DNA of 64,000 nt from Candidatus Gottesmanbacteria bacterium. GTDB taxonomy: Bacteria; Patescibacteriota; Microgenomatia; UBA10105; UBA927. The notes under the pieces are model-generated. The model worked only from the letters and a program-made list of their open reading frames with translations. It was not told the origin of the DNA and ran no database searches. The stretch spans positions 198,206 to 262,205 of the forward strand of contig OY970230.1 of NCBI GenBank assembly GCA_963714095.1. Reading direction: 5' to 3'. A program made the position numbers and the translations under genes. This document shows, in pieces, positions 4,941 through 43,593 of the stretch (within the stretch, counting starts at the first letter, position 1; every line of letters starts with the position of its first letter).

Positions 4941-4995
4941 GTTCTTTATTGTCTCGTATTTGCCAGGTACTTGTCAATGGACCGCGGACGGAAGA

Positions 4996-5634
4996 CTAGA
5001 CTGCGCCTTTACCGGAGATCATTGCCCACGGACTCCTGAAAAGTATGGCGATATCCATGAGCAGTGACCGTTTTTTTACGTAATCCGCATCCATTTTAAT
5101 CCGTTTATCAAAATTCACCTCGCTTCTCCCCGACACCTGCCAATGCCCGGTAATGCCAGGTTTGGCAGACAGCACAATTTTCACTAAATTTTTGGTATGC
5201 GGGTATTTCCGCTGCTGTTCCACGAGTTCGTCCGGATAATACGGACGGGGTCCCACGAGACTCATGTCTCCGCGGATCACATTCACAAGCTGGGGAATTT
5301 CATCAAGAGAATGTTTCCTTATAAACCGTCCCACCCGAGTGACCCGGGGATCATCCAACAGTTTGTAACTATTCCGTTTATATTCGCTGTACAGTTTTGC
5401 CAACTTAGGATCACTCCGGAGCTGTTCATGGGCATTCACGACCATGGAGCGGAATTTAAAGAGTTTAAAGAGTTTCCCGTTTTTTCCGACCCGCTGGGGA
5501 GTATCGGCAAATACCGGACCTTCACTATCCAAAACAATTGCGACGGCTGTAATAAGGCTGATCGGCAGAAACAAAAGGAATATGAATATGCTTCCCACAA
5601 GATCAATGCATCGTTTAATAAACGTGTATATCAT
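4996..5634 (-). CDS. polyprenyl-phosphate sugar-phosphate transferase (small bacterial sugar transferase, WbaP/PglC-like)
   Basis: One N-terminal re-entrant hydrophobic helix. Motifs [21 protein letters not shown] and [14 protein letters not shown] are typical of the bacterial sugar transferase family. Confidence 0.9.
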
Positions 5635-5646
5635 ACGTTGAACCCC

Positions 5647-6729
5647 TCAGGTAAGATGCTCGTTTTGGGTACCCTTTAAACTTTCAACGAGTTTTTTAAT
5701 TTTCGGAACGGAGGATTTGTTGCAGACCAGAATCACATCGTTTGTTGCAACGATAAGGGCATCCTTCACGTCTATCGTCGTCACCAGCTGATCCGTGTAA
5801 TTATAGACCAATGAATCTTCCGTGTCCGTCAGGAGCACTTTTCCCTCCGTTACGTTTTTATCCGCAGCCTCCTCAAGCGCTTCTTTTAATGCTTCCCACG
5901 CCCCGATATCACTCCATCCGATATCCTCAGAAATAACATAGGCAGTAGACGGATTCAGATTTTCCAGAATCAGATTATCAAAACTGTTTTTTTCCAATGT
6001 AGGATAGACGCTGGCAAGCGTTTCCTCGAACCGATCTGTATGCCAGCTCTCGGAAATACGGGAAAGTCCCGCATATATATTCGGTGCAAACTGTTTATAT
6101 TGCGACCATAAAAATTGCGGCGTGGTGACAAAGTATCCTAGATTCCAAGCATGATGATCACTTTCAAAGTACCGTTTCGCTGTTTTTGCGTCAGGCCGGT
6201 ATTGACAGTCAACAAACGAATAAATTGGAATTTCGTTGGCGGTCATCATTCTTTTACCGTACTCAATCCACCCCAAATTTTCACTGGCAAACCGTGGTTT
6301 TTGCGCAACAAACACTATCCTGTTGGAATCTTTTTTTACAATTTCTCCTGCAGCAACAAGAATTTTCCGGAACAGTGCTTCCTTTTTTACCAAATGATCG
6401 CTCCACACAATGACCATAGGCTCCAGAGGAAAATCCCGGACAAGGAGTGACGTAATCAAACCAACCGCAGGCCCGACATCCCGCATCTCCGGCTCGCCTA
6501 TCACGTGATCAGGCGGCAATTCCCCTAATTGTTTTTGGACGATCGCAACATACGGCGCGCCCGTGGAAACATAGATGTCCTTCCATGAAAAGTCCGGCAG
6601 CAATCTGTTGGCTGCCAGCTGCAAGGTTGAGGAACTTCCTATAATTTTTTCAAACTGTTTCGGAGATTTTTTCCGGGAAAGCGGCCATAACCGCGTTCCC
6701 ACTCCTCCTGCAAAAATGACTGCTTTCAT
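5647..6729 (-). CDS. mannose-1-phosphate guanylyltransferase-like nucleotidyltransferase (no PMI domain)
   Basis: N-terminus MKAVIFAGGVGTRLWPLSRKKSPKQF is the ManC/NTP-transferase signature. Length 360 aa. Confidence 0.8.
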   Translation of the reverse strand: MKAVIFAGGVGTRLWPLSRKKSPKQFEKIIGSSSTLQLAANRLLPDFSWKDIYVSTGAPYVAIVQKQLGELPPDHVIGEPEMRDVGPAVGLITSLLVRDFPLEPMVIVWSDHLVKKEALFRKILVAAGEIVKKDSNRIVFVAQKPRFASENLGWIEYGKRMMTANEIPIYSFVDCQYRPDAKTAKRYFESDHHAWNLGYFVTTPQFLWSQYKQFAPNIYAGLSRISESWHTDRFEETLASVYPTLEKNSFDNLILENLNPSTAYVISEDIGWSDIGAWEALKEALEEAADKNVTEGKVLLTDTEDSLVYNYTDQLVTTIDVKDALIVATNDVILVCNKSSVPKIKKLVESLKGTQNEHLT

Positions 6730-7817
6730 TGTATTTTTGTGGCGAGTCTTTCAACCGTGACCCGCATTTCTTTTTTAAATCTTTCTATACCAAAACGTTC
6801 TGCGTTAGCTCTGCATGAACCGCTATCATACCACCCTTTGTTAAATATATGCAAAGCGCGGATCAACGATTCTTTTGTCTGTGCATCAAACAAAATTCCT
6901 GTTTTCCCTTCGATCACAGTTTCCGCCATGCCGCTCTGTCGATAACAGATAACCGGCTTACCGCACGATTGTGCTTCAAGAGCGATTAAACCAAAATCCT
7001 CATCGCCTGCGAACACAAAAGCACGGCACCTTTGATAATAGGCAACAAGATCTGCGTCTGTCAAATAACGCGTAATAAAAGTGATATTATTTTTTGCCCT
7101 CCTCTGCAACACCCGATTGCCCAATCCGCTCCCGATAATTATGAGCGGCCAGCCAAGCTCGTTAAACGCATCAATGACGAGATCTATGCGCTTGTATGGG
7201 ACAAAGCGGGATACCAAAAGAAAATAATTTTCCTTATTCTTTGCAATTCTAAATGTATTCGTATCTATCGGAGGATAAATCACCGTATCGACGTTGCGAT
7301 GATAATATTTCTTTATACGATCCGCGACGTGGCTCGAAATAGTAATGTAATAATCAGGCCGGGAAGAGGCAATTAAATCCCACCGCTTCAGGGTTGGTGT
7401 AAACATTTTCAACATACGTGCGGATACATAATCGGCCCGTTCCATATAGGTCGAATTTCCGCTCCATAAATACCGTGTCGGCGTAAGGCAATAGCAAATA
7501 TGGACGGTGCCCGGCTTGGTAATGATGTTTTTGGCTTCGGCAGACGTCACTGATAGAACCACATCGTACGCGTCAAAAGAAAATGACTCAAACGCCATAG
7601 GGGTAAGCCACGGAAACAGTTCGTGATGCCTTTTTGCAAACGGCACATGCTGCAGAAACGAAGTGTGAACGTCAAAAACGTCTGCCCATGACGCACGGCG
7701 CGGATCATAGACTGCGGTAAAAAGAGGCGCGTCCGGCCAAATCTCATGAAGAGCGAGTAAGACTCGTTCCGCCCCGCCCCATTTATTAACCCGGTCGTAC
7801 ACCAGTGCAATTTTCAT
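6726..7817 (-). CDS. glycosyltransferase family 4 (GT-B)
   Basis: C-terminal donor-binding region FAGDEDFGLIALEAQSCGKPVICY (E-x7-E type). 4-nt stop/start overlap with the downstream gene. Confidence 0.85.
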   Translation of the reverse strand: MKIALVYDRVNKWGGAERVLLALHEIWPDAPLFTAVYDPRRASWADVFDVHTSFLQHVPFAKRHHELFPWLTPMAFESFSFDAYDVVLSVTSAEAKNIITKPGTVHICYCLTPTRYLWSGNSTYMERADYVSARMLKMFTPTLKRWDLIASSRPDYYITISSHVADRIKKYYHRNVDTVIYPPIDTNTFRIAKNKENYFLLVSRFVPYKRIDLVIDAFNELGWPLIIIGSGLGNRVLQRRAKNNITFITRYLTDADLVAYYQRCRAFVFAGDEDFGLIALEAQSCGKPVICYRQSGMAETVIEGKTGILFDAQTKESLIRALHIFNKGWYDSGSCRANAERFGIERFKKEMRVTVERLATKIQ

Positions 7818-8271
7818 ATATTTTTAACGTATCACTCGCCATTTTGTGCCAGGAATATTTTTTCACAATACTTGAATCAACTGGTGGTCTTTTTTTTGCT
7901 GCACGGGTCAAAATTTTTGCAAGATCCTCTGCGCTGTGCGGATCAAAATAGATTGCACAGTTCCCGAGTATCTCATGAAACACAGGAATGTCGCTTACTA
8001 TCACGGGACAATTATTTGCAAGAGCTTCAAGGGCCGGAAGACCGAACCCTTCCATAAGCGAAGGAAACACGAGCGCCTGGGCATTTTTATATAACTCTGA
8101 AAGTTCTACGTCGGTTACGGTTTTGGGTTGTACCCCTAATCGTTTATAGAAAAAATCATCGTTCCCGACAAAAACAACCCGTACACCGGCCTTCAATGCA
8201 GCGCGCATAAGTAACTCCACATTCTTATGCGGGTATGCATTCCCCACGTATAAAAAATAGTTATCCTTCAT
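7786..8271 (-). CDS. glycosyltransferase family 4, C-terminal (donor-binding) domain only
   Basis: Starts at the usual C-domain opening YFLYVGNAYPHKNV and contains EGFGLPALEALANNCPVIVS. It has no N-terminal Rossmann domain of its own. Confidence 0.75.
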   Translation of the reverse strand: MKDNYFLYVGNAYPHKNVELLMRAALKAGVRVVFVGNDDFFYKRLGVQPKTVTDVELSELYKNAQALVFPSLMEGFGLPALEALANNCPVIVSDIPVFHEILGNCAIYFDPHSAEDLAKILTRAAKKRPPVDSSIVKKYSWHKMASDTLKIYENCTGVRPG

Positions 8272-8782
8272 AAATAACTTCTATCTGCTCGGACAACACA
8301 TCAAAATGATCAAGAATTTCTTTTTTCGTACTTTCCGAAACGGCAATTATTTTTTCGCTCCAGAAAATTGCTTTTAACAGAGAAATATAATATCCCAGGC
8401 GGCGGATTTTGTAGAAAACATACGACAGCGTCGTTGCTTTTCCTGTGTCAAAATGCAAAATCGTCAGGTCGTGGATGGTCACGATACATTTTCCGAAATA
8501 GAAAAGCGGGACATTAAAATAGGGAACATGCAAAAGATCGAGATGCTCACTGTTAAAAATCGCCGGCATGAACAGCTGTTCAGTGACACTATGCCATGGA
8601 ATGTCCGCTAACCGTTTCGTCCATCTGGCATTAGGCAATGCAAACGAATCAAACGCAGATTTCCGTAAAAAAACCACGTAGGAATTTTTATCATCAATCT
8701 TCCCCAATTCTGCAATAAGATTGCGGACATATCGTCCGACGCCGGTCTCGTTTACAAGACGTGCATCTATGCCTATCTTCAT
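8261..8782 (-). CDS. glycosyltransferase family 4, N-terminal (acceptor) domain only
   Basis: MKIGIDARLVNETGVGRYVRNL opening. Ends ...IEVIYEG-stop at the end of the N-domain. Its last codons overlap the ATG of 7786..8271 (reverse-strand sequence GTTATTTATGAAGGATAA). Confidence 0.75.
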   Translation of the reverse strand: MKIGIDARLVNETGVGRYVRNLIAELGKIDDKNSYVVFLRKSAFDSFALPNARWTKRLADIPWHSVTEQLFMPAIFNSEHLDLLHVPYFNVPLFYFGKCIVTIHDLTILHFDTGKATTLSYVFYKIRRLGYYISLLKAIFWSEKIIAVSESTKKEILDHFDVLSEQIEVIYEG

Positions 8783-9648
8783 ATAGAAAATTGTTTTAAG
8801 AAAAATAACCGCATCGAATAAAATAGATTAATGACGAGAGATACAACCGGTCCGTATTTTTTCGCATAATGTTTTTTGTAAAACAGCCAGTTATACTCAT
8901 GAAAATAAATCTCGGTTATAACCGCCCGCGAACGAAGAGCACTGCTTCTTCCGCTCTGCTTCTTCTTATGAAGGACTATCGCCTCCGGATTAAACCACAC
9001 TTCCCAACCCTTCTGTTTAAACCGGTACGCCCAATCGATATCCTCAGCATACATAAAATAATCTTCATCAAGGAGACCCACCTCATGTATTGCCTCACTC
9101 CTAGCAAAGAAAAATGCACCGCTCACGCAGTCCACCTGATGGGGAATCGTGATATTTTTGTACCCCATGTGATACTGCCCGAAGATGCGCGACTCTGGGA
9201 ATAATTTTTCAAGACCAATCATATACGTGAAAGCTGCCCACGGCGTCGGGAATCCCCTGTGGCACGCCGGATCCATCTTTCCGTTTGCCAATTCCAGCCG
9301 GCAGGTGGCAGCCCCCGCCTTCAGGTGCCCGTCCATAAACCGCAGCATCGCGCCGATGGAGCCCTCCCGGATCTCCGTATCTGAATTTAACAGTAAAATA
9401 TATTTTCCTTTGGCAATTTTTATCCCTTTGTTATTCGCTTTGGCAAACCCTAAATTCTTCGTGTTCAAAATGAGCCGTATGTCGGGAATCTTTTTGAATA
9501 GTTCCGTGCTTCCGTCGGACGACCCGTTATCTACCACGATAATTTCCAACACTACTCCTTCCGACCACTTCCGTATCGAGTCCAGACATGCCTTCGTCAT
9601 GTCTTTTGTGTTGTAATTGACAATAATAATGGAAAGCTCAGTGTTCAT
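8779..9648 (-). CDS. glycosyltransferase family 2
   Basis: LSIIIVNYNTKD...EIIVVDNGSSDGS...LLLNSDTE is the GT-A DxD architecture, WbbL/rhamnosyltransferase-like. Length 289 aa. Confidence 0.9.
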   Translation of the reverse strand: MNTELSIIIVNYNTKDMTKACLDSIRKWSEGVVLEIIVVDNGSSDGSTELFKKIPDIRLILNTKNLGFAKANNKGIKIAKGKYILLLNSDTEIREGSIGAMLRFMDGHLKAGAATCRLELANGKMDPACHRGFPTPWAAFTYMIGLEKLFPESRIFGQYHMGYKNITIPHQVDCVSGAFFFARSEAIHEVGLLDEDYFMYAEDIDWAYRFKQKGWEVWFNPEAIVLHKKKQSGRSSALRSRAVITEIYFHEYNWLFYKKHYAKKYGPVVSLVINLFYSMRLFFLKQFSI

Positions 9649-10786
9649 ACGCTTCTATCCAAACTCTGTCCTGTTGTTGGGCTATCCTGTCCCACGAATA
9701 TTCTTTTTCTATAAGCGCACGGGCGTTATGTACGATATCCGCACGCTTTTTTGCGTCACGAAGTTTTACTATCGATTCCAAAATTTCATCAGTAGTATCG
9801 GCAACCAAAAAATGTTTTTCTGCTTCTCCCTGCATCCCCGCGATTCCCAAAGAAGAAGCTACAACCGGCAGTCCTGCTGCCATCGCTTCCAATATTTTAT
9901 ATTTTGTCCCGCCCCCGATACGTATAGGAGCCAGCATAATGTCTGCACCGTTGAGTTCATCCTGAATACTGTCTACGCTGCCGGCATAATACGGACCGCG
10001 CGGAGCATATTTACCCACGATACGAAGCTGAGCGTCGGGGTACACTTTGCCAATCGCTGGCCAAATATCATGGATAATGTACTGGGCTGCGTCCCTGTTT
10101 TCCATCCACCGGAAATTCCCGACATATAAAAATTTTGGATTTTTGGACATTATTTTTTTCGGACGGAATGCAAACGCCTTCGTATCTACGCCGTTGGGCA
10201 CGACGGAAACATTGGGCTGCCCTATATACGACCGGTCACTTTCCGACACGGAAATTATCTTTGTTGCCTTTCTCCACACATGCCGTTCCCACAATTTCAT
10301 TTTTATGACATCGCGTAAAAGCAGCGGCCGCAGTACACCGATTTTAAATTTCCTCACATAGGATTCATACACGGTATGTTCAATGTTATGTTCGGCTACA
10401 ACTATAGGAATACGGTGCTCCGTCGGAATCGAGGGCCATACGTATCCCGGCTCGATATGGATACAATCATAGTTACCCATGGAAATCTCATCAGATAAAA
10501 GCGCAAGCATCTCACTGTTATGATAACTTTGCCATAATAACGGGTATGAACCGATCATGGATTTTAATAGATATTTCGGCTGCCACACGCGTCCGCGGTG
10601 TACCGTTGTGACACTTTTACAAAATGACAATTCCGGCAAGTATTTCTTTTCACTTTCTGACCGGATAAACGAATAAAGATGGATCTCGTGTATTCCCGCG
10701 AGGCGTTTCAGTAAATTATATATGCGGATCTGACCTCCGGAGTACAGCGGGTATGGCAATATTGCTGATACGAATAAAATCTTCAT
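9638..10786 (-). CDS. glycosyltransferase family 4 (GT-B)
   Basis: MKILFVSAILPYPLYSGGQIRIYNLLKRL opening and C-terminal GGGTKYKILEAMAAGLPVVAS. Confidence 0.9.
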   Translation of the reverse strand: MKILFVSAILPYPLYSGGQIRIYNLLKRLAGIHEIHLYSFIRSESEKKYLPELSFCKSVTTVHRGRVWQPKYLLKSMIGSYPLLWQSYHNSEMLALLSDEISMGNYDCIHIEPGYVWPSIPTEHRIPIVVAEHNIEHTVYESYVRKFKIGVLRPLLLRDVIKMKLWERHVWRKATKIISVSESDRSYIGQPNVSVVPNGVDTKAFAFRPKKIMSKNPKFLYVGNFRWMENRDAAQYIIHDIWPAIGKVYPDAQLRIVGKYAPRGPYYAGSVDSIQDELNGADIMLAPIRIGGGTKYKILEAMAAGLPVVASSLGIAGMQGEAEKHFLVADTTDEILESIVKLRDAKKRADIVHNARALIEKEYSWDRIAQQQDRVWIEAYEH

Positions 10787-10790
10787 GAAT

Positions 10791-12236
10791 TTACTTTGCC
10801 GCAGCAGGTGTCGCTTCTTTTGGCTTTGTTAAATCAATGATTGCAAATGTATCGTTCCGTACTAATACCGTGTACTTTGCGGCAAGGTCGCGGGTCTCAG
10901 TATCGGCATCGGTTGGTGACACGGTGACGTATGCAGTTGCTCCCATGGCGATTTTCTTATCGATATCAAACCCCTCGGGCCAACCCTGACGCTGGGTCTG
11001 ATACAAAAATGTCGTGTCTCCGTTATATGGCGCTATCACTTTGGCATCTTTCGGAAGTATAGCGTCGGCGGCTTTCCCCGCCGCAACAATTTCAGGATGA
11101 TTAATCCAATAATATGTCCGTATCGTAAACCATGAAAAACCGAGCGCCGCGGCTATACTTAGAATCGCGACGATAATCCCGGGAATTTTCATTCTGAACA
11201 GTGATACGAAGCCTTTCGCGGTATAAATCGCGACAACCGGAAGAATAAGAATTTGATAATAATCATGCTGGACGTTGCCTGTGGCAAAAATAATAAAATA
11301 CAGAAGAGTTCCGACGGCTAACCATCGGAAAATCCATCCTTCTTTTTTATCCGCAGATGACGCCAGGCCTAAACCGAACGGGATAAGCCCCCAGAATCCG
11401 AGGATAAGATCTCCCAAACGGGTCGCAAAAAGCCAGTGAAACCATGCGCCTTTGAAGCGGATACCGTTGCCGTTTAATAACCATGTACTTGCCGGAATGC
11501 CTTCCGGAAATTGAAGTATCCAGCGGCGCCATAATAAAAGTGGGATCACCGAAATAGTGCCGTACAGAAGGTATTTAAAAAATGTTTGTTTCGAAATACC
11601 AGATTGCCTAAAAATAATATACGGGATGGGAATAAGAAGAAATACCGCCATGGGTTTAGACAACAATGCCAATGCGCCTGCAATAGCGCTGACAATGACC
11701 CAGCGAAAATTTTTCCTCCGCCCGACCAGCCACAAACTCAACACGGACCAGAATACCATCTGCGGATCCGGCAGTATGGTTCTGCCGTAGTACATACTGT
11801 ACGGCAGTACAGCAAAAAGAAATGCAGCAAACAAACCGGTAACAGGGTCAATATATTGGGCTACCAATAGTCCTAAGACAACCGTTGTTCCGGCGGATGC
11901 CGCGATCGTCACGATTCGGAGCCACACTTCAATCGGAATCTTCGGAATACTCAATTTGCCCAATACCGCAATAACCTGATAGATCGGGAATTCCACCATC
12001 CGCCAGCCCTGCGGGTTATCTTTACCGGATTGAATGTTCGAGAGGTCATCATATCTCGGGTGTAGTGGGTCTATCCCGAACCGCAAAAAATTCCGGGCAA
12101 CAGCAGCGGTATCGGCCTGGCGCCAACTATGCCAGTCCGCGACCGGATACGTAATATGGTATAACCGCACACCACAAGCCGCCACGCCAATACAAAACAA
12201 AAGGGGAATAAAATATTTAGCGATAAATTTTCCCAT
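10791..12236 (-). CDS. GT-C fold glycosyltransferase, PMT_2/ArnT-like (family 39/83-like)
   Basis: About 12 hydrophobic segments. The first-loop motif DWHSWRQADTAAVARNFLRFG is as seen in PMT_2-type lipid-carrier-dependent transferases. C-terminal soluble tail. Confidence 0.7.
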   Translation of the reverse strand: MGKFIAKYFIPLLFCIGVAACGVRLYHITYPVADWHSWRQADTAAVARNFLRFGIDPLHPRYDDLSNIQSGKDNPQGWRMVEFPIYQVIAVLGKLSIPKIPIEVWLRIVTIAASAGTTVVLGLLVAQYIDPVTGLFAAFLFAVLPYSMYYGRTILPDPQMVFWSVLSLWLVGRRKNFRWVIVSAIAGALALLSKPMAVFLLIPIPYIIFRQSGISKQTFFKYLLYGTISVIPLLLWRRWILQFPEGIPASTWLLNGNGIRFKGAWFHWLFATRLGDLILGFWGLIPFGLGLASSADKKEGWIFRWLAVGTLLYFIIFATGNVQHDYYQILILPVVAIYTAKGFVSLFRMKIPGIIVAILSIAAALGFSWFTIRTYYWINHPEIVAAGKAADAILPKDAKVIAPYNGDTTFLYQTQRQGWPEGFDIDKKIAMGATAYVTVSPTDADTETRDLAAKYTVLVRNDTFAIIDLTKPKEATPAAAK

Positions 12237-12239
12237 ACA

Positions 12240-15233
12240 TTATTTTTCGACTTTCATAAGCTGTTTCAACTGATAGTTTTCGAAAATAAATCTCTCCGCT
12301 GCAAACCCTACTTGTACTGGCGTGCTATATGCGGCTTCAGGCGTTGAAACGTTTGTCGTCGTATACCCATATGCATTCAACCGGAAAATATGCCACAAAG
12401 GATCCGCTAACCCTGTCGGGAAAATCCACGCGCGCCCGTACCTGATTGGCGTATTGATAAATATGAAACTGGTATATTGCCGAAGCGGGAAAAATTGCTT
12501 ACTTAAAGCAAGAAGTGTATTCTGGGAAACGGAACTTGCTTTTTTCCAATCAGTACTCAAACGCCCGATTTCCGACACATTCCATACGATAAGTCCTGCG
12601 ATTGCGGCAACGACAACGAATTTCACGGCGGCCTGCCGTGAGCGTTTCCACCATACAGATATCCCCGTACCCAGTGCCACAATAAAAAATCCGCTCGCGG
12701 CAAACACGTACCGTTCACTCATGTTTCCCAACCCGATAAATGCCAAAAGTGCAACGAAGCCGCATAATGCCCAGAAAAACACTGCGCGGTACGCGGCAAC
12801 GCGGCGCCAAACTTTCCATACGCATGCGGCAACGCCACCGATAAGCAATAACCCAGTCCCCACGGCAATCATGCGATGAATCCGCAGATACTCCCGCAGT
12901 ATTCCCCAGGATTCAATGACGCGGGTTCCGAAAAAGGTTGAGACGACATAGCCGACGGTGTTTCCGATAACGTTAAACGGCAACGTCGAGAGTTTGTAGC
13001 CATAATCTCCTGATGGAGGCACAGCACCCGAAGCAGTCCTGACAATCCAATACAGCGGTATTGCTATCAAAGGTAAGAACGTTGTCCAGTGGCGTTTACC
13101 CAGTATTACCCACGCAACGAGACAGTAAATAAGAGGCGCGACGATCATCCCATCATATGAGAGCATAGCGGACACGAGTAAAAGGAGTGACGCACAATAT
13201 ACTACCCATTTACCCCATGTAGGGCGCCGTCCGTACATCACCAAAAGAACGATACTGCCGAACAAACTGGCTGCAGAAAGTAAACTGCTCTGCCCTGAAA
13301 TCCAAAAAACATTTTCGTTGTGTATGGCAAGTGAAGTAAAGAGCAAGGCAAAAACCAGCGCTACCCAACGTTTGACGTCCGTCAGAACCAGCAGAAGATA
13401 CACAAAATACGCGCTTACGGCCAAAAGCAGGTACGACAAGAAGTGATACCCTTCGGGCTTCAGCCAAAACACCGCATACAGGACAAAATACCAAAACTTC
13501 GGTATCGGACGATAAAAAAATCCCTGGGCATTCGTAAAGTACGAAAGCAAACCCGAGAACGGCGTACTGGCTGCCCACCGCAGCCAGGTAAAATCATCCG
13601 CGACGAAATAGTTAGAAATGGAAGAACCGAAAAGCACAATGGCTGCCAGAAATAAATACATGGCATATGCGATATCATGCGTTAATGCGCGCCACATCAG
13701 TCTCATATAATCCGTAAACCGAAATTCAACCGTCGTAAGGAGTGCAAGCGCGACTCCAAGGAGTAACCATAACGTAAAGGCCACCTTCGACGCTTCAAAC
13801 ACGTCAATAAGAATCCCGTTAAATATTAAACCCGTGAGACCTCCGAATACGCCGACAACAAACGCCTTCTGATATCCGACGAGCGTTTCTTTCCGCCTGA
13901 AAAATATAACATAGGCGGCAAGAAGTATCCCTAAAAACGCAACAGTTCCCAATATGCCGGTTTCACCCAGCATCCTGACATAATCGCCGTCGGATGCCAC
14001 TGATAGCGTCGAATAGCCGCTCCCCAACAGGATATTCCGTTTGAAAGCGGTCATTGCTAGAGGCCACTCCCCCTGCAGACGCGTCGTGATGGAAATGTCA
14101 TAAACGAGCGCCTTCTGGATGAGGAAGCTTCCGGAAACCGTAGCGATTTCTCCCGTTCCGCTTTCGAGACTCACGCTGGTGTAAGAAATCGTCTTTACCT
14201 GGCTCGAAGCCGAAGCAGGCGCCTGCGACGCAGGCAAACCGATATATTCACTTCCTGTCGGCAAATTTTCCACAGCCGGAGATGCAGACTGCTGAACAAC
14301 CGCAGTTGTCCCTTCGAGGGACGCAAGTGTCCCGACCGGTTTACCGGTAGACAAATCCACAATGACGTCATTATATCTGAATGTTTTATAAAACCGATCC
14401 GATGCACCATTAAAAAAATTCAGCAGGAAAAAACTGAAGAGTATAACCGGAATGATAAACCATTTCTTTTTATACCAAAAAAGCATCACGCTTATCGCGA
14501 CAAGATACACGAGAAACGACGTCCGTGATTGTGTGAGAAACAGCATGACGAGCGATCCGACGGACACCATGAAAAATATAATTTTCTGCCACAGTTTATT
14601 GGCCGCAAATACAAACGCGGTAAGAATCGGAACGGTGAAAACGACAAATGCAGCAAGATCATAATGTCCTCCAAAGGTTGAAGGGATGCGCGCCGTAGGC
14701 GGAAGACGAAGCGGTATTCCCTTTGCGAACTGCTCGTTCATCGTCAAAAATGCCGGCCAGCCGAAAAATTTTTCACCAAGTCCGTATACGATAATGCCTA
14801 CTGTTGTTCCCACAAGCGTCCAGATGACCGCCGTAACCAACGACTTCTTCCTGGCAACGACGTCAAATGCTATAAAAAACAGCATCATGTATTCTATCCG
14901 CCGGAGCCAATGCAGCAAAACAAGATGGGGGAAATACCCGACAAGCTTTGGACCGATAAAAATCATGGAAAAGACAGCCGAAATAAGGCCGACGCCCCAA
15001 AAAACAAGAATCGGCCATGTAAGCGGCGTTTTCGGAATATGACGCTGCTGTAGGCGCAGCAGAACATACACACCAACTGCAGCCGCAACAAAAAAATCTT
15101 CCAGGCGTATATAAACAAACGTCCGGATAACATTAATAAGCGGCAACTTCGGATAGAGCGGAATAAACGCCAAAAAAAACAATATCGTCAGTCCGCCGAT
15201 GTTACTGGTTAACCAATGCAAGGCCTTCTTCAT
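12240..15233 (-). CDS. fusion membrane protein: O-antigen ligase/polymerase (Wzy_C) domain plus second GT-C-like polytopic domain
   Basis: Residues ~1-515 carry Wzy_C-like features (FLTQSRTSFLVYLVAI ... LLGSGYSTL ... DYVRMLGETGILG) with a ~100-aa Ser/Ala/Thr-rich loop insertion. Residues ~520-997 form a second multi-TM block opening with YFVADDFTWLRWA. Confidence 0.65.
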   Translation of the reverse strand: MKKALHWLTSNIGGLTILFFLAFIPLYPKLPLINVIRTFVYIRLEDFFVAAAVGVYVLLRLQQRHIPKTPLTWPILVFWGVGLISAVFSMIFIGPKLVGYFPHLVLLHWLRRIEYMMLFFIAFDVVARKKSLVTAVIWTLVGTTVGIIVYGLGEKFFGWPAFLTMNEQFAKGIPLRLPPTARIPSTFGGHYDLAAFVVFTVPILTAFVFAANKLWQKIIFFMVSVGSLVMLFLTQSRTSFLVYLVAISVMLFWYKKKWFIIPVILFSFFLLNFFNGASDRFYKTFRYNDVIVDLSTGKPVGTLASLEGTTAVVQQSASPAVENLPTGSEYIGLPASQAPASASSQVKTISYTSVSLESGTGEIATVSGSFLIQKALVYDISITTRLQGEWPLAMTAFKRNILLGSGYSTLSVASDGDYVRMLGETGILGTVAFLGILLAAYVIFFRRKETLVGYQKAFVVGVFGGLTGLIFNGILIDVFEASKVAFTLWLLLGVALALLTTVEFRFTDYMRLMWRALTHDIAYAMYLFLAAIVLFGSSISNYFVADDFTWLRWAASTPFSGLLSYFTNAQGFFYRPIPKFWYFVLYAVFWLKPEGYHFLSYLLLAVSAYFVYLLLVLTDVKRWVALVFALLFTSLAIHNENVFWISGQSSLLSAASLFGSIVLLVMYGRRPTWGKWVVYCASLLLLVSAMLSYDGMIVAPLIYCLVAWVILGKRHWTTFLPLIAIPLYWIVRTASGAVPPSGDYGYKLSTLPFNVIGNTVGYVVSTFFGTRVIESWGILREYLRIHRMIAVGTGLLLIGGVAACVWKVWRRVAAYRAVFFWALCGFVALLAFIGLGNMSERYVFAASGFFIVALGTGISVWWKRSRQAAVKFVVVAAIAGLIVWNVSEIGRLSTDWKKASSVSQNTLLALSKQFFPLRQYTSFIFINTPIRYGRAWIFPTGLADPLWHIFRLNAYGYTTTNVSTPEAAYSTPVQVGFAAERFIFENYQLKQLMKVEK

Positions 15234-16071
15234 ATATTGTGACCAAATCCTGCTTTCCGAGGATTTTACCGATACTAATTGAAACGGTCGCCTTAACCGT
15301 CAACATAAATTTTAACACAGATACCTCCTGCGGTGTTTTGTGCTTCCGATAAAAATACAGAAGCCCGCGGAATATATTTGCCACTGGCGCCCGCTTATTG
15401 CCGCTGGAAGCGGCACCGGTATGAATAAAGCGCGCGTCAGGAGTAAAAAAGACGGAATATCCTTTTCGAGCCGCACGATAGAGAAATTCTATCTCATCCA
15501 TATACATAAATATCCCCTGATCGAATAACCCCACATCATAAAAAGAGTCCCTAGTGCCGAGTAAACATGCTCCTGACACCCAACCAACACGCCTCGTATG
15601 GTCCGGCGAATACCGGGTTATCGATATCTTATCTCCGCGGCAAAACAACATGAGAAATATATACCAAAGGGAAAACTCGGGCCCGCAGGACGGCTGAAGC
15701 GATCCATCCTCGTTGTAGAGTTTTCCTCCGACGAAAGATTTAGGATGTGCCAGAGCAAATTCATATAATTTTTCAAAAGCACCATTGAGCGCATCGATAT
15801 CGGAATTGAGCATAAGAACATAGGTCCCCTTCGCAATATGAAGACCCATGTTATTGGCGGTACCATAACCTACATTTTCCTTATTGAGTATTTTTATTAC
15901 CTGAGGAAATTGTGTATTCAACATCGCAACAGAACCGTCACGGGACGCATTATCGACAACAATGATTTCATATGTCAACTTGGAATGTTTAAGAGTCTCA
16001 ACGATTGACCGCAGACACCGCCCCGTCAAGTGTTTAGTGTTAAAACTGGGGATAATAATTGATAGATCCAT
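15202..16071 (-). CDS. glycosyltransferase family 2
   Basis: MDLSIIIPSFNTKH...EIIVVDNASRDGS...LMLNSDID. Same 289-aa length and subfamily as 8779..9648. Confidence 0.9.
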   Translation of the reverse strand: MDLSIIIPSFNTKHLTGRCLRSIVETLKHSKLTYEIIVVDNASRDGSVAMLNTQFPQVIKILNKENVGYGTANNMGLHIAKGTYVLMLNSDIDALNGAFEKLYEFALAHPKSFVGGKLYNEDGSLQPSCGPEFSLWYIFLMLFCRGDKISITRYSPDHTRRVGWVSGACLLGTRDSFYDVGLFDQGIFMYMDEIEFLYRAARKGYSVFFTPDARFIHTGAASSGNKRAPVANIFRGLLYFYRKHKTPQEVSVLKFMLTVKATVSISIGKILGKQDLVTIYEEGLALVNQ

Positions 16072-16074
16072 ACG

Positions 16075-16638
16075 TCACTGGAAGAGCCTCGAAAACTTCA
16101 GCGTATAGTGAAGATTTTTCGACCGGTCTCGGATATGGCTAGCCGGGACCCCCCCGACCACTTCGTAGTCTCCCACGTCTTTGGTGACGACTGCCCCGGA
16201 TGCTATGACTGCCCCGCGTCCTACATGGACACCGGGTAAAATCGTAACTCTCGTTCCTATGACTGCATAATCATCGATAACAACCGGCGCCGCGACTTCG
16301 ACAAAATCCGGGCTATCTATATCATGCTCCATGGTGTAAATGCGTACTTCACCGGCAATCGACACATTATTGCCTATTTTTAATGGGTGTCCATTCGATT
16401 TTAGATAGGTAACGAAATTTTTCATCCGGCCGTCTAAAAATGCATCATTACCTATCACGGTATTGTGCCCTATCGCGACACCCGCCGGCTGATTAAACTC
16501 CGCACGCCAGTGAATAGAAGAGTCCTTTCCGATTTTAATCCGGAAGAGTGTCCGGTAAAGAAATAAACGAATCGTATGACTCGGAATATAGCCGGTAAGC
16601 GTACAAAGATATACCCAAAAATCTATGAGTGCCCTCAT
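16075..16638 (-). CDS. hexapeptide-repeat (left-handed beta-helix) O-acetyltransferase
   Basis: Repeats IGHNTVIGNDAFL, IGNNVSIAGEVRI, IDDYAVIGTRVTILPGVHVGRGAVIASGAVV. I moved the start to the ATG at 16638, which forms an ATGA overlap with the stop of 16635..17768. The listed ORF extends to 16695. Confidence 0.85.
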   Translation of the reverse strand: MRALIDFWVYLCTLTGYIPSHTIRLFLYRTLFRIKIGKDSSIHWRAEFNQPAGVAIGHNTVIGNDAFLDGRMKNFVTYLKSNGHPLKIGNNVSIAGEVRIYTMEHDIDSPDFVEVAAPVVIDDYAVIGTRVTILPGVHVGRGAVIASGAVVTKDVGDYEVVGGVPASHIRDRSKNLHYTLKFSRLFQ

Positions 16639-17768
16639 ACTTTGCCTCCCACTTTTTCCAATACCTCCAGTGTCTGTTGTGCCGCTTTTTCCCATGTAAA
16701 TTTTTTCACCTGTGCAAGTCCCGCGTCCACACGCTGCCGCCCTTGTATCAGGTTTCTCTGCCGTACTGCCGTAAGAAGCCCGGCAGCGATACTTTCTGCA
16801 CTACCCGCGTCCACATAAATCCCTGCCCTGCCAGCTATCTCAGGAAGACTGGAAACGTTCGAAACGACTACTGGGCATTTATACGCCATCGCCTCCAGAA
16901 CCGGAAGCCCAAACCCTTCGTACAGGCTCGGGAGAGCAAAACAGAGCGCATGTTTGTAAAAAGACGGAAGTTCACCATCAGGCACAAAATCCAAAAATTT
17001 TACGCTCTGAATGACTCCGAATTTTTTCGGAGCGGCAAGGATATCCTCATACAGCCAACCCTTTTTCCCGATGATGACAAGCTGAAGATCGGAGAACTTC
17101 TGCTTATTGGTTCCGATAAACCGTGCAAACGCCTCGATGAGCTTCACATAATTTTTTCTTGGCTGAATCGTGCCTACAGATAGGATAAAATTCCTGCTCA
17201 TATCGTATTTTTTTGTCAACGTTTCAATTGGAACAGAGGAAGTCGTTTTTTTATCCATAGTGAAACCGGGATACATCACAAAAACCCTATCCCCGGATAC
17301 GTGATATTGCCTAATTATAGCATTTTTGCTGAACTCGCTTATCGTCAGTATCCTTGCCGCATGTGCGACTCCATACCCTGTCCATTGCTTCAGCTGATAC
17401 AGATCCTTCGGTTTAAACATTTCGGGATACAACAGGTACGACAAATCCATAATCGCCATCACCCTGGGAACGCGTACAAAACGGGGTATATAGTGCGTCG
17501 GAGAAAACATAACATCAAGTGCAGGCTCCTCTTTCCGAATCGCCAGAGGCAATCCCACCAACGTCCATAATTTCGACGGTCTGCATACGCGATACTGCCA
17601 GTACCTCGTTTCTTTCGGCATATCATTTTGCGCAGACCCGGGCAAAAACACAGTTACGTTGTGCCCAGCCATGAGCGGATAAAGATGCACAAGAATTTCG
17701 TACGCGTACCGGCCGATACCCACGCGGTTAACGACATTTGCTTCATACCCGTCGATTCCTATATTCAT
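16635..17768 (-). CDS. glycosyltransferase family 4 (GT-B), full length
   Basis: MNIGIDGYEANVVNRVGIGRYAYEIL opening. C-domain FILSVGTIQPRKN and EGFGLPVLEAMAYKCPVVVS. Confidence 0.9.
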   Translation of the reverse strand: MNIGIDGYEANVVNRVGIGRYAYEILVHLYPLMAGHNVTVFLPGSAQNDMPKETRYWQYRVCRPSKLWTLVGLPLAIRKEEPALDVMFSPTHYIPRFVRVPRVMAIMDLSYLLYPEMFKPKDLYQLKQWTGYGVAHAARILTISEFSKNAIIRQYHVSGDRVFVMYPGFTMDKKTTSSVPIETLTKKYDMSRNFILSVGTIQPRKNYVKLIEAFARFIGTNKQKFSDLQLVIIGKKGWLYEDILAAPKKFGVIQSVKFLDFVPDGELPSFYKHALCFALPSLYEGFGLPVLEAMAYKCPVVVSNVSSLPEIAGRAGIYVDAGSAESIAAGLLTAVRQRNLIQGRQRVDAGLAQVKKFTWEKAAQQTLEVLEKVGGKV

Positions 17769-18325
17769 AATGAAAACCCCGGATATATAACGTGGAGTTT
17801 GCTTTCAGGAATGTGCAACAGCTCCATAATGTCTTTTTTTGTCGATTCACTGTCACAAAAAATGGCTGCGCATTCTTTTTTCACCCACCTGAGCCTCCGT
17901 GCATGCGTAGCCACAATACCCATATCCATTTCCTTTAGAAAACGTATCGTCGAAAGATCATGAACGGTTGTCACACCTTTTGCATGGAATAGCGGCGGCT
18001 GCGTCCAATCGCTGCTCCAAAAAACATCCAACGGCCCGGTAAATGTTTCAACAGGCAGAACATGAAAACTGTTCCACATGATGTCCAAGAGTTTCGGCGG
18101 AAGAGGAATCCTCTTTAATTCTACATTTGGATTTATCTTCCTCATTTCCTGAAAAAACTCTTCAAATATATGTTTTTTCCGGAGTGATGCGCCGAATAAA
18201 ACATATGTATTTCCCTTATCAATTTTTAAAAGCGTTTTAACCATGCGCCGGACATAGGCTGCCACTCCGGTGCCCTCGTAGACTATCTGGCTGATATCTA
18301 TTCCGATACGCATATACCCTATCAT
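17765..18325 (-). CDS. glycosyltransferase family 4 N-terminal domain only (truncated paralogue of the downstream gene)
   Basis: MRIGIDISQIVYEGTGVAAYVRRMV opening. Ends ...LHVIYPGFSL-stop, aligning with ...VFVMYPGFTM in 16635..17768. 4-nt overlap with that gene. No C-domain ORF follows. Confidence 0.7.
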   Translation of the reverse strand: MIGYMRIGIDISQIVYEGTGVAAYVRRMVKTLLKIDKGNTYVLFGASLRKKHIFEEFFQEMRKINPNVELKRIPLPPKLLDIMWNSFHVLPVETFTGPLDVFWSSDWTQPPLFHAKGVTTVHDLSTIRFLKEMDMGIVATHARRLRWVKKECAAIFCDSESTKKDIMELLHIPESKLHVIYPGFSL

Positions 18326-22081: not shown

Positions 22082-22792
22082 CTATTGTAGCATACGGATA
22101 CGGATGGCTCCTGCAAGCGACCGCAGGAGTTCTTTCACGTTTGCATTGGAAGCTCCATGTGTTCTGTCCCGGAAACTTATGGGGACTTCCGTTATTCGAA
22201 AACTGTTCTGCTTCAGTTTATATGCTATTTCCGACAGTACGATAAACCCGGTTTCATGAAGGTGCACGCGCACCAAAAATTCCGCTGCTTTTCGGGAGTA
22301 TAATCGGAAACCGTTGGTATAATCCGTTAAGTGCAACCCAAGCCATATGCTTAACAAGGCGTTAATTACTCTGCTTTGAATAAGTCGACGCCACGGCCAT
22401 TTTACAATATGGCTCTGTTTAAGATACCGCGAACCGATAACCAAATCTGCCCCGCGGCGTACGGCTAAAAACCGTCCGAACTCTGCCGGTGAATGCGCTA
22501 GATCTGCATCCATCTCAAAACAATATTGTATTTCCTTATGTTTGAGGGCTTCAGCTAATCCCCGAATGACGGCACTCCCTCTGCCCATTTTGTGCTCGCG
22601 GGAAATAAGAACCACGTTGGGAAAATCCCTTTGAAGCATTCCTGACAGTTGTATTACTTCGTTGGCAGGAGAGTCATCAACAACCACGATCAGAGCATCC
22701 GGGAGGTATTTTTCTATATCTTTTAATAAAATACTTAAATTTTTTTGTTCGTTATACGCCGGAATAATGACTGAAATACCTTGATTATTCAT
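22082..22792 (-). CDS. polyprenyl-phosphate glycosyltransferase, GT2 (DPM1/ArnC-like)
   Basis: ISVIIPAYNEQKNL...VVVDDSP...GRGSAVIRG...FEMDADLAHSP has the DPM1-type MDADLSH-like motif. Length 236 aa, no TM tail. Confidence 0.8.
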   Translation of the reverse strand: MNNQGISVIIPAYNEQKNLSILLKDIEKYLPDALIVVVDDSPANEVIQLSGMLQRDFPNVVLISREHKMGRGSAVIRGLAEALKHKEIQYCFEMDADLAHSPAEFGRFLAVRRGADLVIGSRYLKQSHIVKWPWRRLIQSRVINALLSIWLGLHLTDYTNGFRLYSRKAAEFLVRVHLHETGFIVLSEIAYKLKQNSFRITEVPISFRDRTHGASNANVKELLRSLAGAIRIRMLQ

Positions 22793-37765: not shown

Positions 37766-37773
37766 TAGAAAAC

Positions 37774-39983: not shown

Positions 39984-40020
39984 ACCTCGTATAATATATT
40001 TCTACCATGGTAGTCTGAAG

Positions 40021-43587: not shown

Positions 43588-43593
43588 ATCCCT

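Follow-up and report, generated by a model that had tools for sequence, protein, structure and literature searches.

Can one polypeptide unite two glycosyltransferases that work on lipid-linked sugars, and if so, what might it contribute to a bacterial surface? This question is raised by a Gottesmanbacteria/Microgenomates MAG, in which the 64-kb window (the whole stretch of DNA that was analyzed) is a glycan island with at least 7 GT-C-type enzymes, centered on a conserved operon. An initial annotation of this DNA described a 997-aa fusion of a Wzy_C domain with a second, GT-C-like domain. Here we ask whether the fusion is genuine, what each half resembles, and which reactions the protein could couple.

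The fusion is a real and widely conserved gene

The fusion ORF is intact in the ORF list exactly where the initial annotation placed it, and all motifs quoted for it are present: TQSRTSF at aa 234-240, GSGYSTL...DYVRMLGETGILG at aa 404-429, and YFVADDFTWLRWA at aa 542-554 (Table 1). Its first 32 nt are shared with the upstream GT2 gene and only 3 nt separate its stop from the next gene, which places it inside an operon. Chance is excluded: the 997-aa protein has 1972 homologues at E≤1e-3, and nearly all of the top 120 cover its full length. The whole fusion recurs in over 100 independent assemblies at 47-79% identity and in 23 more distant fusions (32-46% identity), each representing a 50%-identity cluster. 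Members of the distant fusion and standalone clusters are uninformatively named, with a single "hypothetical protein" label. Column conservation was computed from a main alignment of 36 full-length fusion homologues, whereas residue invariance was counted over 24 sequences (distant fusions at 32-46% identity). The AF2 model of the whole protein has a pLDDT of 77 and a pTM of 0.74.

We also considered whether a chimeric contig or sequencing error had joined neighboring genes at about nt 13650-13750, the interval in which the initial annotation had recommended a check. The gene pair is naturally split in one related locus (L012, see below), as this explanation might lead one to expect, but the junction is contiguous and gap-free in the 36 aligned full-length homologues and the 23 distant representatives, which come from four assembly sources (NCBI, JGI, ENA, and Logan). 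Moreover, the identical 997-aa protein is found on a 1.09-Mb contig, and the same single fusion ORF occurs in five syntenic loci. Because the protein is full length in so many independent assemblies and distant clusters, it is not an assembly chimera, and we assign an artefact a negligible probability. The fusion is a real, widely conserved membrane protein of uncultivated Gottesmanbacteria.

The two modules are joined by a cytoplasmic linker, which bears three Arg residues and is modeled by AF2 as a helix at 506-517. It shows the lowest conservation (0.48), yet it is contiguous in 36/36 aligned homologues. By the positive-inside pattern, the conserved motifs of the two halves all fall outside the cell.

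Table 1. Features of the fusion gene and its surroundings, in window coordinates
Feature	Position (nt)	Strand	Description
Fusion gene	12240..15233	-	997 aa, ATG start, ~25 helices, two fused glycosyltransferase modules
N-terminal half	13737..15233	-	aa 1-499; 12-TM WaaL/Wzy_C-like (GT-C_B type), both termini cytoplasmic
TM5-TM6 outside loop	14664..14762	-	aa 158-190 (GWPAFLTMNEQFAKGIPLRLPPTARIPSTFGGH); most conserved segment of the protein
R237 in LTQSRTSF	14523..14525	-	Wzy_C HMM position 16, same as E. coli WaaL R215; invariant 24/24
Large outside loop	13983..14378	-	aa 286-417; conserved flanks, short variable core
Variable S/A-rich stretch	14178..14231	-	aa 335-352 (ASQAPASASSQVKTISYT); S/A/T/G 0.61, conservation 0.38
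R385 in ITTRLQGEWP	14079..14081	-	Proposed equivalent of WaaL R288 (second phosphate-binding Arg); invariant 24/24
DGDYVRMLGETGILG, Wzy_C signature	13947..13991	-	aa 415-429; Asp415 at the WaaL catalytic His position
Linker at module junction	13677..13736	-	aa 500-519; cytoplasmic, amphipathic helix
C-terminal half, membrane part	12492..13676	-	aa 520-914; ~13-TM GT-C_A-like module
First outside loop of GT-C module	13458..13613	-	aa 541-592; D546-D547 (nt 13593-13598), R575-P576, K579
H638-N-E640 (HxE) in outside loop	13314..13322	-	E640 23/24, W644 24/24
E840-R841-Y842 in late outside loop	12708..12716	-	R841 23/24, Y842 24/24
C-terminal alpha/beta domain	12243..12491	-	aa 915-997; 83 residues, predicted outside the cell
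Upstream GT2 glycosyltransferase	15202..16071	-	289 aa; Pfam Glycos_transf_2 5e-24; syntenic in every related locus
Upstream operon	16075..18325	-	WcaF-like acetyltransferase, GT4, ORF with GT4 N-domain only; conserved
Downstream PMT_2-type GT-C enzyme	10791..12236	-	481 aa; Pfam PMT_2 1.5e-8, PMT 2.4e-5
Remaining downstream operon	4996..10786	-	GT4, GT2, split GT4, another GT4, mannose-1-P guanylyltransferase, Bac_transf
Small Bac_transf phosphoglycosyl transferase	4996-5634	-	End of downstream operon
Short GT2s of the island	22082-22792, 56824-57615, 60353-61039		Three genes
ORF with C-half family profile match	40021-41694		Treated as distant superfamily member
Polysacc_synt_3 (Wzx-like) gene	57602-58858		43 kb away; sole such gene

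The N-terminal half is WaaL-like, with Asp at the position of the catalytic His

The N-terminal half (N-half) has the WaaL-type 12-TM fold with a long C-proximal outside loop, and fold and motifs together bear out its initial assignment to the Wzy_C family. Pfam Wzy_C (PF04932) matches aa 224-428 of the whole protein (E=4.5e-5, 23.7 bits) and scores 24.7 bits against the N-half alone (E=2e-5 to 4.5e-5 across both queries). The HMM annotation suggested at the outset therefore yields a statistically significant match, but one below the gathering score of 31.7 bits. Homologues P0008 and P0035 also stay below it, at 30.6 and 27.6 bits, and the fusion and its close homologues span 24-31 bits relative to this threshold of the current Pfam release; a standalone N-half relative (locus L006) passes at 32.7 bits. 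A Pfam scan at E≤1 gave Wzy_C and a spurious B12D match, with no PglL_A or Wzy_C_2 accessory domain beside Wzy_C. We discounted an NCBIfam match to the "bicarbonate transporter" IctB (30 bits versus a cut-off of 366), which reflects the fact that IctB is a Wzy_C-like protein.

In WaaL (CAZy GT121; PDB 7TPG/7TPJ), two Arg residues bind the Und-PP phosphates and a His activates the acceptor (PMC10920833). Because an hhalign comparison of the N-half profile with E. coli WaaL was insignificant (2% probability, with a local alignment around TQSR only), we mapped residues via Pfam model coordinates. Motif comparison and the local hhalign alignment match R237 to WaaL R215, the first phosphate-binding Arg. 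For R385, the order of motifs and a likeness to E. coli SLGARLAMYE, rather than a profile, suggest equivalence to R288. The phosphate-binding pair of WaaL (R191/R265 in 7TPG; R215/R288 in E. coli) is in this way represented by R237, placed by the Pfam model (Table 1), and R385, placed by motif order only.

The third catalytic position differs. In place of the catalytic-His motif H[NSQ]x9Gxx[GTY] (H313 in 7TPG; H338 in E. coli), the fusion has DGx9GxxG. D415 and E. coli H338 share Pfam HMM position 130, a mapping counted back from the match ends on the assumption of no gaps in the last residues, and Gly residues follow D415 at +11 and +14 as in WaaL. Within clan GT-C1, the SEDS enzymes and the inverting polymerases have Asp or Glu where WaaL has its His (PMC10920833). 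D415, R237, and R385 match the arrangement of the inverting Wzy polymerases and SEDS enzymes (GT119 and GT125-129; PMC10920833), which have 1-2 conserved Arg plus Asp/Glu at the outer face and use lipid-PP-oligosaccharide donors, as the fusion presumably does. Because Asp replaces the ligase His, as in these enzymes, we prefer to view the N-half, on its sequence, as a Wzy-type polymerase/transferase acting on a sugar acceptor over a WaaL/PglL-type ligase, a polymerase-versus-ligase call that we infer from this residue pattern. The same substitution weakens the PglL-type O-oligosaccharyltransferase or ligase role entertained in the initial annotation. The fusion departs from WaaL in other respects as well: its big loop is ~75 residues longer between the two Arg, its Wzy_C score falls below the gathering threshold, a whole extra GT-C enzyme is attached at its C terminus, and its host is a monoderm-type Patescibacterium, with no LPS core or lipid A genes among the scanned window ORFs.

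Two outside loops of the N-half are highly conserved over most of their length. The TM5-TM6 loop has a mean column conservation of 0.94 at an AF2 pLDDT of <50, and N166, E167, K171, R182, and H190 are retained in 23-24/24 distant fusions. The large outside loop had been described as a Ser/Ala/Thr/Gly-rich insertion of ~100 aa. The enrichment holds (44% S/A/T/G versus 30% in the whole protein), but the low-complexity insertion shrinks to the ~18 residues at aa 335-352, the only truly low-complexity, length-variable part, where indels occur among aligned homologues. Because the flanks of this core rank with the best-conserved regions of the protein (0.74-0.96), we rejected the notion that the loop is a disordered low-complexity insertion. 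AF2 models a few strands and one long helix (369-399) in the loop, with pLDDT <50 over 276-388.

The C-terminal half is a GT-C module

The C-terminal half (C-half) has a bona fide GT-C membrane fold, and its first outside loop carries an invariant DD. This agrees with the initial annotation, which had named the lack of such a fold as grounds for refutation. A second TM block is indeed present, but it comprises ~13 helices followed by the 83-residue alpha/beta domain, not the ~11 segments first counted. D546-D547, the sole DD/DE pair in the protein, directly follows TM1 of the module, the start of the first outside loop being where GT-C_A enzymes carry their acidic residue(s); AF2 predicts short juxtamembrane helices in this loop. 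Both Asp residues are also nearly invariant in distant standalone C-half relatives, as are, in the distant C-half family alignment, the R841 position and the counterparts of E640 and W644 (E134 and W138). R841 is a candidate donor-phosphate ligand. Strands and helices are predicted for the C-terminal domain, which retains conserved P929, G933, and W936 and is placed outside by the topology argument.

The C-half has no Pfam or NCBIfam match and no match to a MIR domain, and only 3/36 of its distant relatives match PMT_2. An hhalign comparison of the C-half family with the adjacent PMT_2 protein (65% probability over 70 columns) is suggestive only. Searching PDB sequences with the N-half sequence and with profiles of the N-half, the C-half family, and the full-length protein gave nothing meaningful; a lectin-repeat likeness without significance and an aquaporin (E=0.14) were the only matches. 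The C-half family comprises 3198 representatives of 50%-identity clusters at E≤1e-3, without a Pfam model. Two candidate relatives were dismissed: P0137, which looked like a standalone C-half, is a fragment on a 1.4-kb contig, and true standalones were then sought by their N termini and contexts; window ORF 40021-41694 matches the broad C-half family profile, but BLASTP with the C-half was empty, and we count this ORF as a remote member of the superfamily rather than a paralogue.

We compared the C-half with known GT-C_A lipid-P-sugar transferases, namely GT39 (Pmt1/2/4), ArnT (GT83), and bacterial PMT_2/TMTC-like proteins. Unlike the PMTs, it has neither a Pfam PMT/PMT_2 match nor MIR, and it carries DD rather than their DE. 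Fold comparison gives ArnT, ALG12, and STT3 scores similar to those of the PMTs, so the fold does not specify the acceptor. Were the C-half a GT66-type oligosaccharyltransferase using Und-PP-oligosaccharide, the protein would contain two en bloc transferases. We consider this highly improbable and rejected it on the absence of WWD(YG) anywhere in the sequence; the sole DxD is D415-G-D417, in the N-half, and sequence-level links lead to PMT_2, PMT, and GtrII, not to STT3. Oligosaccharyltransferases also have a large periplasmic domain, whereas the C-terminal outside domain here has only 83 residues.

The two halves occur fused, split, and singly in one operon slot

The downstream gene order is kept in loci L001-L004 and L007, down to 44% fusion identity. 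At L012, the slot holds N-half and C-half homologues as adjacent separate genes 4 nt apart (37% identity, E=1e-94, and 28% identity, E=3e-37, respectively), whereas L006 has the N-half only and L010/L011 the C-half only. The 481-aa PMT_2-type enzyme is the constant partner in all four architectures. The N-only and C-only variants show that coupling of the two activities in cis is not obligatory.

That each half can exist without the other in cis, as the single-half variants of this slot show, together with a C-half less conserved than the N-half (0.53 versus 0.70-0.94), could point to a protein in which one half is enzymatic and the other is a non-catalytic substrate-delivery, scaffold, or lipid-carrier-recycling partner kept for complex formation. 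We find this quite improbable, as the candidate catalytic residues of both halves persist in fusions at 32-46% identity (R237, R385, D415, D546, and D547 in 24/24 each; E640 and R841 in 23/24 each), and the DD, RP, and E/W motifs are retained in distant standalone C-half relatives as well.

Alongside its phosphoglycosyl transferase, the operon supplies a GDP-mannose enzyme, an acetyltransferase, and enzymes of the GT4 and GT2 families, which we count in favor of the two-step function proposed below. Neither a Wzx flippase nor a chain-length regulator is found in the conserved core operon, and a Wzy-type pathway is for this reason incomplete as seen; the sole Wzx-like gene is distant (Table 1), and no Wzz domain was detected in the scanned window ORFs. 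The three short GT2s of the island resemble AglJ, PpgS, ArnC, or PgfS-type polyprenyl-P-sugar synthases, all below NCBIfam cut-offs, and by this resemblance they probably make the polyprenyl-P-sugar donor for the C-half. In GtrA/GtrB/GtrC, CsbB/YfhO, and Listeria GtlA/GtlB, a GT2 makes a polyprenyl-P-sugar and a GT-C protein transfers the sugar to a surface polymer outside. The island likewise has candidate short GT2 synthases and several GT-C proteins, although no GtrA-type flippase was identified in it, and in the three-component systems the GT-C enzyme is a separate protein, not fused to a polymerase or ligase.

A possible two-step function on the outer face

The analysis shows two folds with conserved motifs, a pattern of topology, a syntenic operon, and both joined and separate forms of the gene pair. 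On this basis we propose that the protein consists of two outward-facing lipid-linked-sugar glycosyltransferase modules, both catalytically competent, that carry out consecutive steps on the same surface glycan. We hold this proposal at an even balance of belief and doubt. Judging from the operon, the phosphoglycosyl transferase and the GT4/GT2 enzymes would assemble, on the cytoplasmic side, an acetylated oligosaccharide linked to undecaprenyl diphosphate, and a flippase encoded elsewhere would carry it outward. The 12-helix N-half would then bind the Und-PP-oligosaccharide via R237 and R385, with D415 as the base activating an acceptor hydroxyl, and move the glycan en bloc with inversion. 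The PMT/ArnT-like C-half would use D546-D547 to transfer a single sugar from a polyprenyl-monophosphate sugar, adding either a branch or a primer to that glycan or to its acceptor. Donors, acceptor, and order of steps are inferred here. A lipid-PP-glycan step could plausibly be coupled to a lipid-P-sugar step because, by topology, the conserved residues of each module lie outside the membrane; the fusion would hold both active sites side by side in the membrane. In relatives the pair is encoded by two adjacent genes.

A precedent for coupling is WadA of Brucella, a bimodular O-antigen ligase (GT121) fused to GT25 and interpreted as coupling two steps (PMC9938171; PMC10920833). Each of the two proteins joins a membrane module of the Wzy_C/ligase type to a further glycosyltransferase, and both modules act, for the fusion as a proposal, on the same glycoconjugate. 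The extra domain of WadA, however, is a soluble cytoplasmic GT-A-type enzyme using a nucleotide sugar, whereas that of the fusion is a 13-helix GT-C module with an outside-facing site; no GT25 or other soluble GT domain was found in the fusion. The domain order is also reversed, with the Wzy_C module N-terminal, and both reactions would occur on the outer face. By this comparison the fusion appears to resemble WadA in logic only.

The logic of WadA would suggest a different order, in which the C-half primes the final acceptor (an S-layer or pilin protein at Ser/Thr, or a lipid/wall anchor) with a single sugar taken from a polyprenyl-P-sugar, and the N-half ligates the completed Und-PP-oligosaccharide onto that sugar. 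We regard this prime-and-ligate scheme as doubtful. It conflicts with the invariant Asp in place of the ligase/oligosaccharyltransferase catalytic His; no acceptor protein was identified, and the C-half fold is not acceptor-specific; and N-only and C-only variants would break an obligatory order unless a paralogue supplies the missing step. Its strongest form, a self-contained O-glycosylation machine with PMT-like priming on S-layer or pilin Ser/Thr (or a wall/lipid anchor) followed by en bloc ligation with an Asp base, seems to us unlikely. If true, it would be a third route to bacterial O-glycoproteins, specific to Microgenomates and different from both PglL-type direct en bloc transfer and PMT-type stepwise mannosylation.

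Implications for envelope glycans in Patescibacteria

This architecture does not appear in the literature searched on Wzy_C plus GT-C fusions, O-antigen ligases of Patescibacteria, and S-layers and O-antigen of CPR bacteria; the domain combination appears previously undescribed and is made of known enzyme types. The His-to-Asp change adds a further data point on the distinction between ligases and polymerases in clan GT-C1. Patescibacteria/CPR are uncultivated, and how they build their envelopes is poorly understood. If our preferred reading of two consecutive outward-facing steps is correct, the fusion would pair two kinds of reaction whose pairing has been suspected in O-antigen, teichoic-acid, and capsule decoration but is hard to demonstrate with separately encoded enzymes. 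It would also define a GT-C family that is without a Pfam model, offer a compact single-gene target for structures of coupled GT-C_B/GT-C_A catalysis, and possibly provide a new part for glyco-engineering.

An intact gene in a tightly packed operon

The 997-aa fusion starts with ATG in the ORF listing of the window, and all of the peptide motifs quoted in the initial annotation were found in it where expected. Its first 32 nt overlap the 3' end of the upstream GT2 gene, and a PMT_2-type gene starts 3 nt after its stop codon; the fusion is therefore a member of a tightly packed operon. The initial annotation had allowed that it might be an assembly chimera of two ORFs meeting at about 13650-13750. 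However, a 1,088,247-bp contig encodes an identical protein, and the best 120 of 1972 relatives (from NCBI, JGI, ENA, and Logan assemblies) are nearly all 960 to 1013 aa long, with 47 to 79% identity to the fusion; the few named ones are Gottesmanbacteria, Microgenomates, or Patescibacteria. The junction (aa 495-520) is unbroken in A1, an alignment of 36 full-length homologues, and 23 further representatives of 50%-identity clusters share this architecture, their identity to the fusion being only 32 to 46%. Based on these four observations we reject a chimera, the probability of which is negligible.

Features of the window discussed in the text
Feature	Position (nt)	Strand
Core operon gene 1, GT4 N-domain ORF	17765-18325	-
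Core operon gene 2, complete GT4	16635-17768	-
Core operon gene 3, WcaF-like acetyltransferase		
Core operon gene 4, GT2	15202-16071	
Core operon gene 5, fusion	12240-15233	-
Core operon gene 6, PMT_2-type GT-C	10791-12236	
Core operon gene 7, GT4		
Core operon gene 8, GT2		
Core operon gene 9, GT4 in two ORFs	8261-8782 and 7786-8271	-
Core operon gene 10, GT4		
Core operon gene 11, mannose-1-P guanylyltransferase		
Core operon gene 12, small Bac_transf phosphoglycosyl transferase		
Core operon gene 13, DUF4012 protein		
Overlap of GT2 and fusion	15202-15233	
Fusion, TM5-TM6 loop (aa 158-190)	14664-14762	-
Fusion, distal part of large outside loop	13983-14178	-
Fusion, motif YGRAWIFPTGLADPLWHI (aa 931-948)	12390-12443	-
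GT-C-like membrane proteins (at least seven)	10791, 12240 (two modules), 31626, 40021, 44994, 58873, 62073	
557-aa multi-helix protein	40021-41694	-
Large proteins without a significant Pfam match (several)	18327, 22814, 25121, 26984, 28669	
Segment of low G+C	32000-44000	
Only plus-strand genes	33382-34593 and 36578-37765	+
Split transketolase pair	49028-50796	
Wzx-like gene	57602-58858	

The N-terminal half has a polymerase/SEDS-type catalytic pattern

The only significant Pfam match in the N-half is Wzy_C (aa 224-428/429; E=2e-5 to 4.5e-5; 23.7 to 24.7 bits), which lies under the gathering score of 31.7 bits. Close fusion homologues score 27.6 to 30.6 bits, and a 560-aa standalone relative in a related locus (L006) passes the threshold with 32.7 bits. 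Fold and motifs agree with the Wzy_C identity originally proposed, despite the subthreshold score. To map residues, we scanned E. coli K-12 WaaL with the same model. WaaL aa 205-354 corresponds to HMM positions 6-146 and fusion aa 224-429 to positions 3-144; counted from the match ends, WaaL R215 and fusion R237 both fall at position 16, and WaaL H338 and fusion D415 both at position 130. The local motifs are LTQTRATL in WaaL versus LTQSRTSF in the fusion at the first Arg, and HNEIIEAGSLKGLMG versus DGDYVRMLGETGILG at the His/Asp site, where both proteins have Gly at +11 and +14. Fusion R385 (ITTRLQGEWP) resembles WaaL R288 (SLGARLAMYE), of which, by motif order only, it would be the counterpart.

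In WaaL, two Arg bind the phosphates of undecaprenyl diphosphate and a His activates the acceptor; in SEDS polymerases and in the GT-C1 families of inverting Wzy-type polymerases, Asp or Glu takes the place of this His (PMC10920833). R237, R385, and D415 are unchanged in 24/24 fusions, down to 32% identity. Given this mapping and invariance, we infer from sequence that the N-half has the WaaL/Wzy_C fold, but with the catalytic pattern of a polymerase or SEDS enzyme and not that of a ligase or OTase. The Wzy_C assignment made initially holds as to fold, but the ligase/O-OTase role suggested with it is weakened by the residue at the WaaL His position.

The large outside loop (aa 286-417) is rich in Ser, Ala, Thr, and Gly (0.44, versus 0.30 for the whole protein), and since the two Arg lie about 75 residues farther apart than in E. 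coli WaaL, it is expanded, as had been noted. However, the supposed insertion of about 100 aa is mostly conserved sequence: variation and indels are confined to aa 335-352 (conservation 0.38), whereas the flanks (0.74 to 0.96) carry the motifs DVIVDLSTGKP.GTL, SPA.ENLP.GS, and GEIATVSGSFLIQKALVYDISITTR, which rules out a low-complexity insertion. The most conserved segment of the fusion is the TM5-TM6 loop (0.94), and the distal part of the large loop reaches 0.85 to 0.96. AlphaFold pLDDT is <50 in both, i.e., in the most conserved parts of the protein; folding of these loops may require contact with a partner, a substrate, or the other module.

The C-terminal half is a PMT/ArnT-style GT-C module

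Neither Pfam nor NCBIfam matched the C-half (aa 520-997). An exhaustive HMMER search with aa 507-997 against 1.84 billion cluster representatives returned a family of 3198 proteins at E<=1e-3. Part of these are fusions aligned at approximately residues 510-990; others are true standalone proteins of 450 to 530 aa, in which an initial Met, a short tail, and one helix precede YF.(A/S/G)DDF.WL. Several short matches that looked like standalone proteins (e.g., P0137) proved to be contig fragments. In A2, the alignment with distant standalone relatives (16 to 30% identity), D546, D547, R575, P576, H597, E640, W644, an acidic residue at 694, P700, R841, and W896 are near-invariant. A few distant relatives match PMT_2, PMT, or GtrII and bear C-terminal TPR repeats, like TMTC-type enzymes. 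Comparison with known GT-C enzymes gave 17.2 for ALG12, 17.0 for Pmt4, 16.5 for Pmt2, 16.3 for ArnT, 16.1 for STT3B, 15.2 for PglB, 14.3 for ALG9, and 14.0 for AglB.

D546-D547 is the sole DD/DE pair of the fusion, and the WWD motif is absent from its whole sequence. For these reasons we assign the C-half to the PMT/ArnT (GT-C_A) style of GT-C enzymes, in a family without any Pfam model, in keeping with the GT-C-like character first ascribed to it; an oligosaccharyltransferase-like C-half, which would need to do without WWD, is very unlikely. Separately, one motif in the C-terminal outside domain (Table) is similar to the lectin blade repeat GRLEVFARGTDNALWHIWQ, but the likeness to Photorhabdus PLL/PHL lectin beta-propellers is not significant (E-values >1, one copy only).

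We derived the topology by combining the AlphaFold helices with the positions of Lys and Arg. The N-half has 12 helices with both ends inside, and by the topology argument the 20-residue linker, with its three Arg and an amphipathic helix, lies in the cytoplasm. The GT-C module then opens with an in-to-out helix, which places the DD pair outside. Provided that helix 576-589 is assigned to the first outside loop and helix 771-785 to the membrane, all positively charged loops fall inside, and all conserved motifs (HxE, Y/D693-694, PSGDYGY, and GLG..ERY) and the C-terminal alpha/beta domain fall outside. By parity the module would then have 13 helices, rather than the approximately 11 of the initial annotation, which had correctly seen a second membrane block, and its C-terminus would lie outside, as in ArnT and PglB. 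The active sites of both halves would therefore face outside.

The two halves occur fused, adjacent, or alone in the same slot

The 64-kb window is a one-strand glycan island, almost wholly on the minus strand. The conserved operon lies at about 4996-18325, and the order of its core is kept in five other loci, where identity to the fusion falls to 44%. In L012 the slot is divided between two genes 4 nt apart: one (4404-5996) encodes an N-half homologue of 530 aa, 37% identical over aa 23-503 (E=1e-94), and the next (6001-7416) a C-half homologue of 471 aa with 28% identity (E=3e-37). L010 and L011 have a C-half homologue alone, likewise overlapping the GT2 gene by 32 nt, and L006 has a Wzy_C homologue alone; the PMT_2 gene comes next in all of these variants. 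We conclude from them that the halves are independent evolutionary modules, repeatedly associated, sometimes fused and sometimes alone. As the C-half-only gene of L010 (1633-3078) shares its 32-nt GT2 overlap with the fusion, one possible explanation is that the Wzy_C module was lost through an in-frame internal deletion that spared the start region.

L003, L004, L006, and L007 come from MAG records titled "uncultured Gammaproteobacteria", yet are fully syntenic with the Microgenomates/Gottesmanbacteria operon (fusion identity 44 to 51%; N-half homologue in L006, 32 to 37%); this taxonomic name is probably mistaken or a placeholder. The gene 1 ORF, a 186-aa GT4 N-terminal domain directly upstream of a complete GT4, stays separate (178 to 209 aa) in all syntenic loci. 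Gene 9 is split into overlapping ORFs for a Glyco_transf_4 N-domain and a Glycos_transf_1 C-domain, respectively, as in L001-L003, and is a single ORF in L004 (358 aa) and L007 (366 aa); it may be a true two-subunit GT4 or a conserved frameshift.

Elsewhere in the window, the 557-aa multi-helix protein has no Pfam match. It matches the broad GT-C profile of distant C-half relatives (98 bits, locally), with QQDEW in place of ADDFTW, and BLASTP against the C-half itself found nothing; we regard it as a probable further, unannotated PMT_2/TMTC-like GT-C enzyme. The low-G+C segment (0.36 to 0.40, versus 0.44 to 0.49 in its flanks) corresponds to a sub-cluster of genes for GT2s, GT4s, acyltransferases, and methyltransferases, includes the only plus-strand genes, and may represent a glycan cassette that is variable or was acquired horizontally. 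The window also encodes three DegT aminotransferases.

A proposed bifunctional model

One chain thus holds two different GT-C-class folds, with invariant candidate catalytic residues in both. The core operon appears able to build an undecaprenyl diphosphate (Und-PP)-linked acetylated oligosaccharide; it contains neither Wzx nor a chain-length regulator, and the Wzx-like gene lies elsewhere in the window. Three short GT2s of the island, at 22082-22792, 56824-57615, and 60353-61039, resemble polyprenyl-P-sugar synthases, all under family cut-offs. In the model we propose, the N-half would transfer the Und-PP-linked oligosaccharide en bloc and with inversion; the diphosphate would be held by R237 and R385, and D415 would serve as base. 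The C-half would add one sugar from a polyprenyl-P-sugar to the product of the N-half or to its acceptor. We favor, with moderate confidence, an N-half that acts as polymerase/transferase on a sugar acceptor and a C-half that decorates the product, because the sole discriminating feature tested, Asp instead of His, is the polymerase/SEDS state.

The main alternative is a "prime-and-ligate" order as in WadA, in which a fused GT makes the acceptor sugar of the ligase (PMC9938171; PMC10920833). Together with this precedent, the PMT-like character of the C-half speaks for such an order, which we regard as possible but rather unlikely. That one half is non-catalytic is improbable given the 24/24 invariance of R237, R385, and D415 and the near-invariance of D546 and D547 in A2; this reading, an OST-like C-half, and a chimera are each less likely than prime-and-ligate.

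Both building blocks are of known type, the Wzy_C/WaaL fold being GT-C_B of clan GT-C1 and the PMT/ArnT-like fold GT-C_A. In the searchable literature we found no description of a Wzy_C plus GT-C fusion of about 25 helices with both sites on the outer face, and none of the database entries looked up bears a functional name. WadA was published as the first bifunctional O-antigen ligase; its extra domain is a soluble cytoplasmic GT25 (PMC9938171), whereas that of the fusion is a membrane GT-C. The fusion is not categorically new, but is of interest to bacterial glycobiologists and to researchers working on CPR envelopes.
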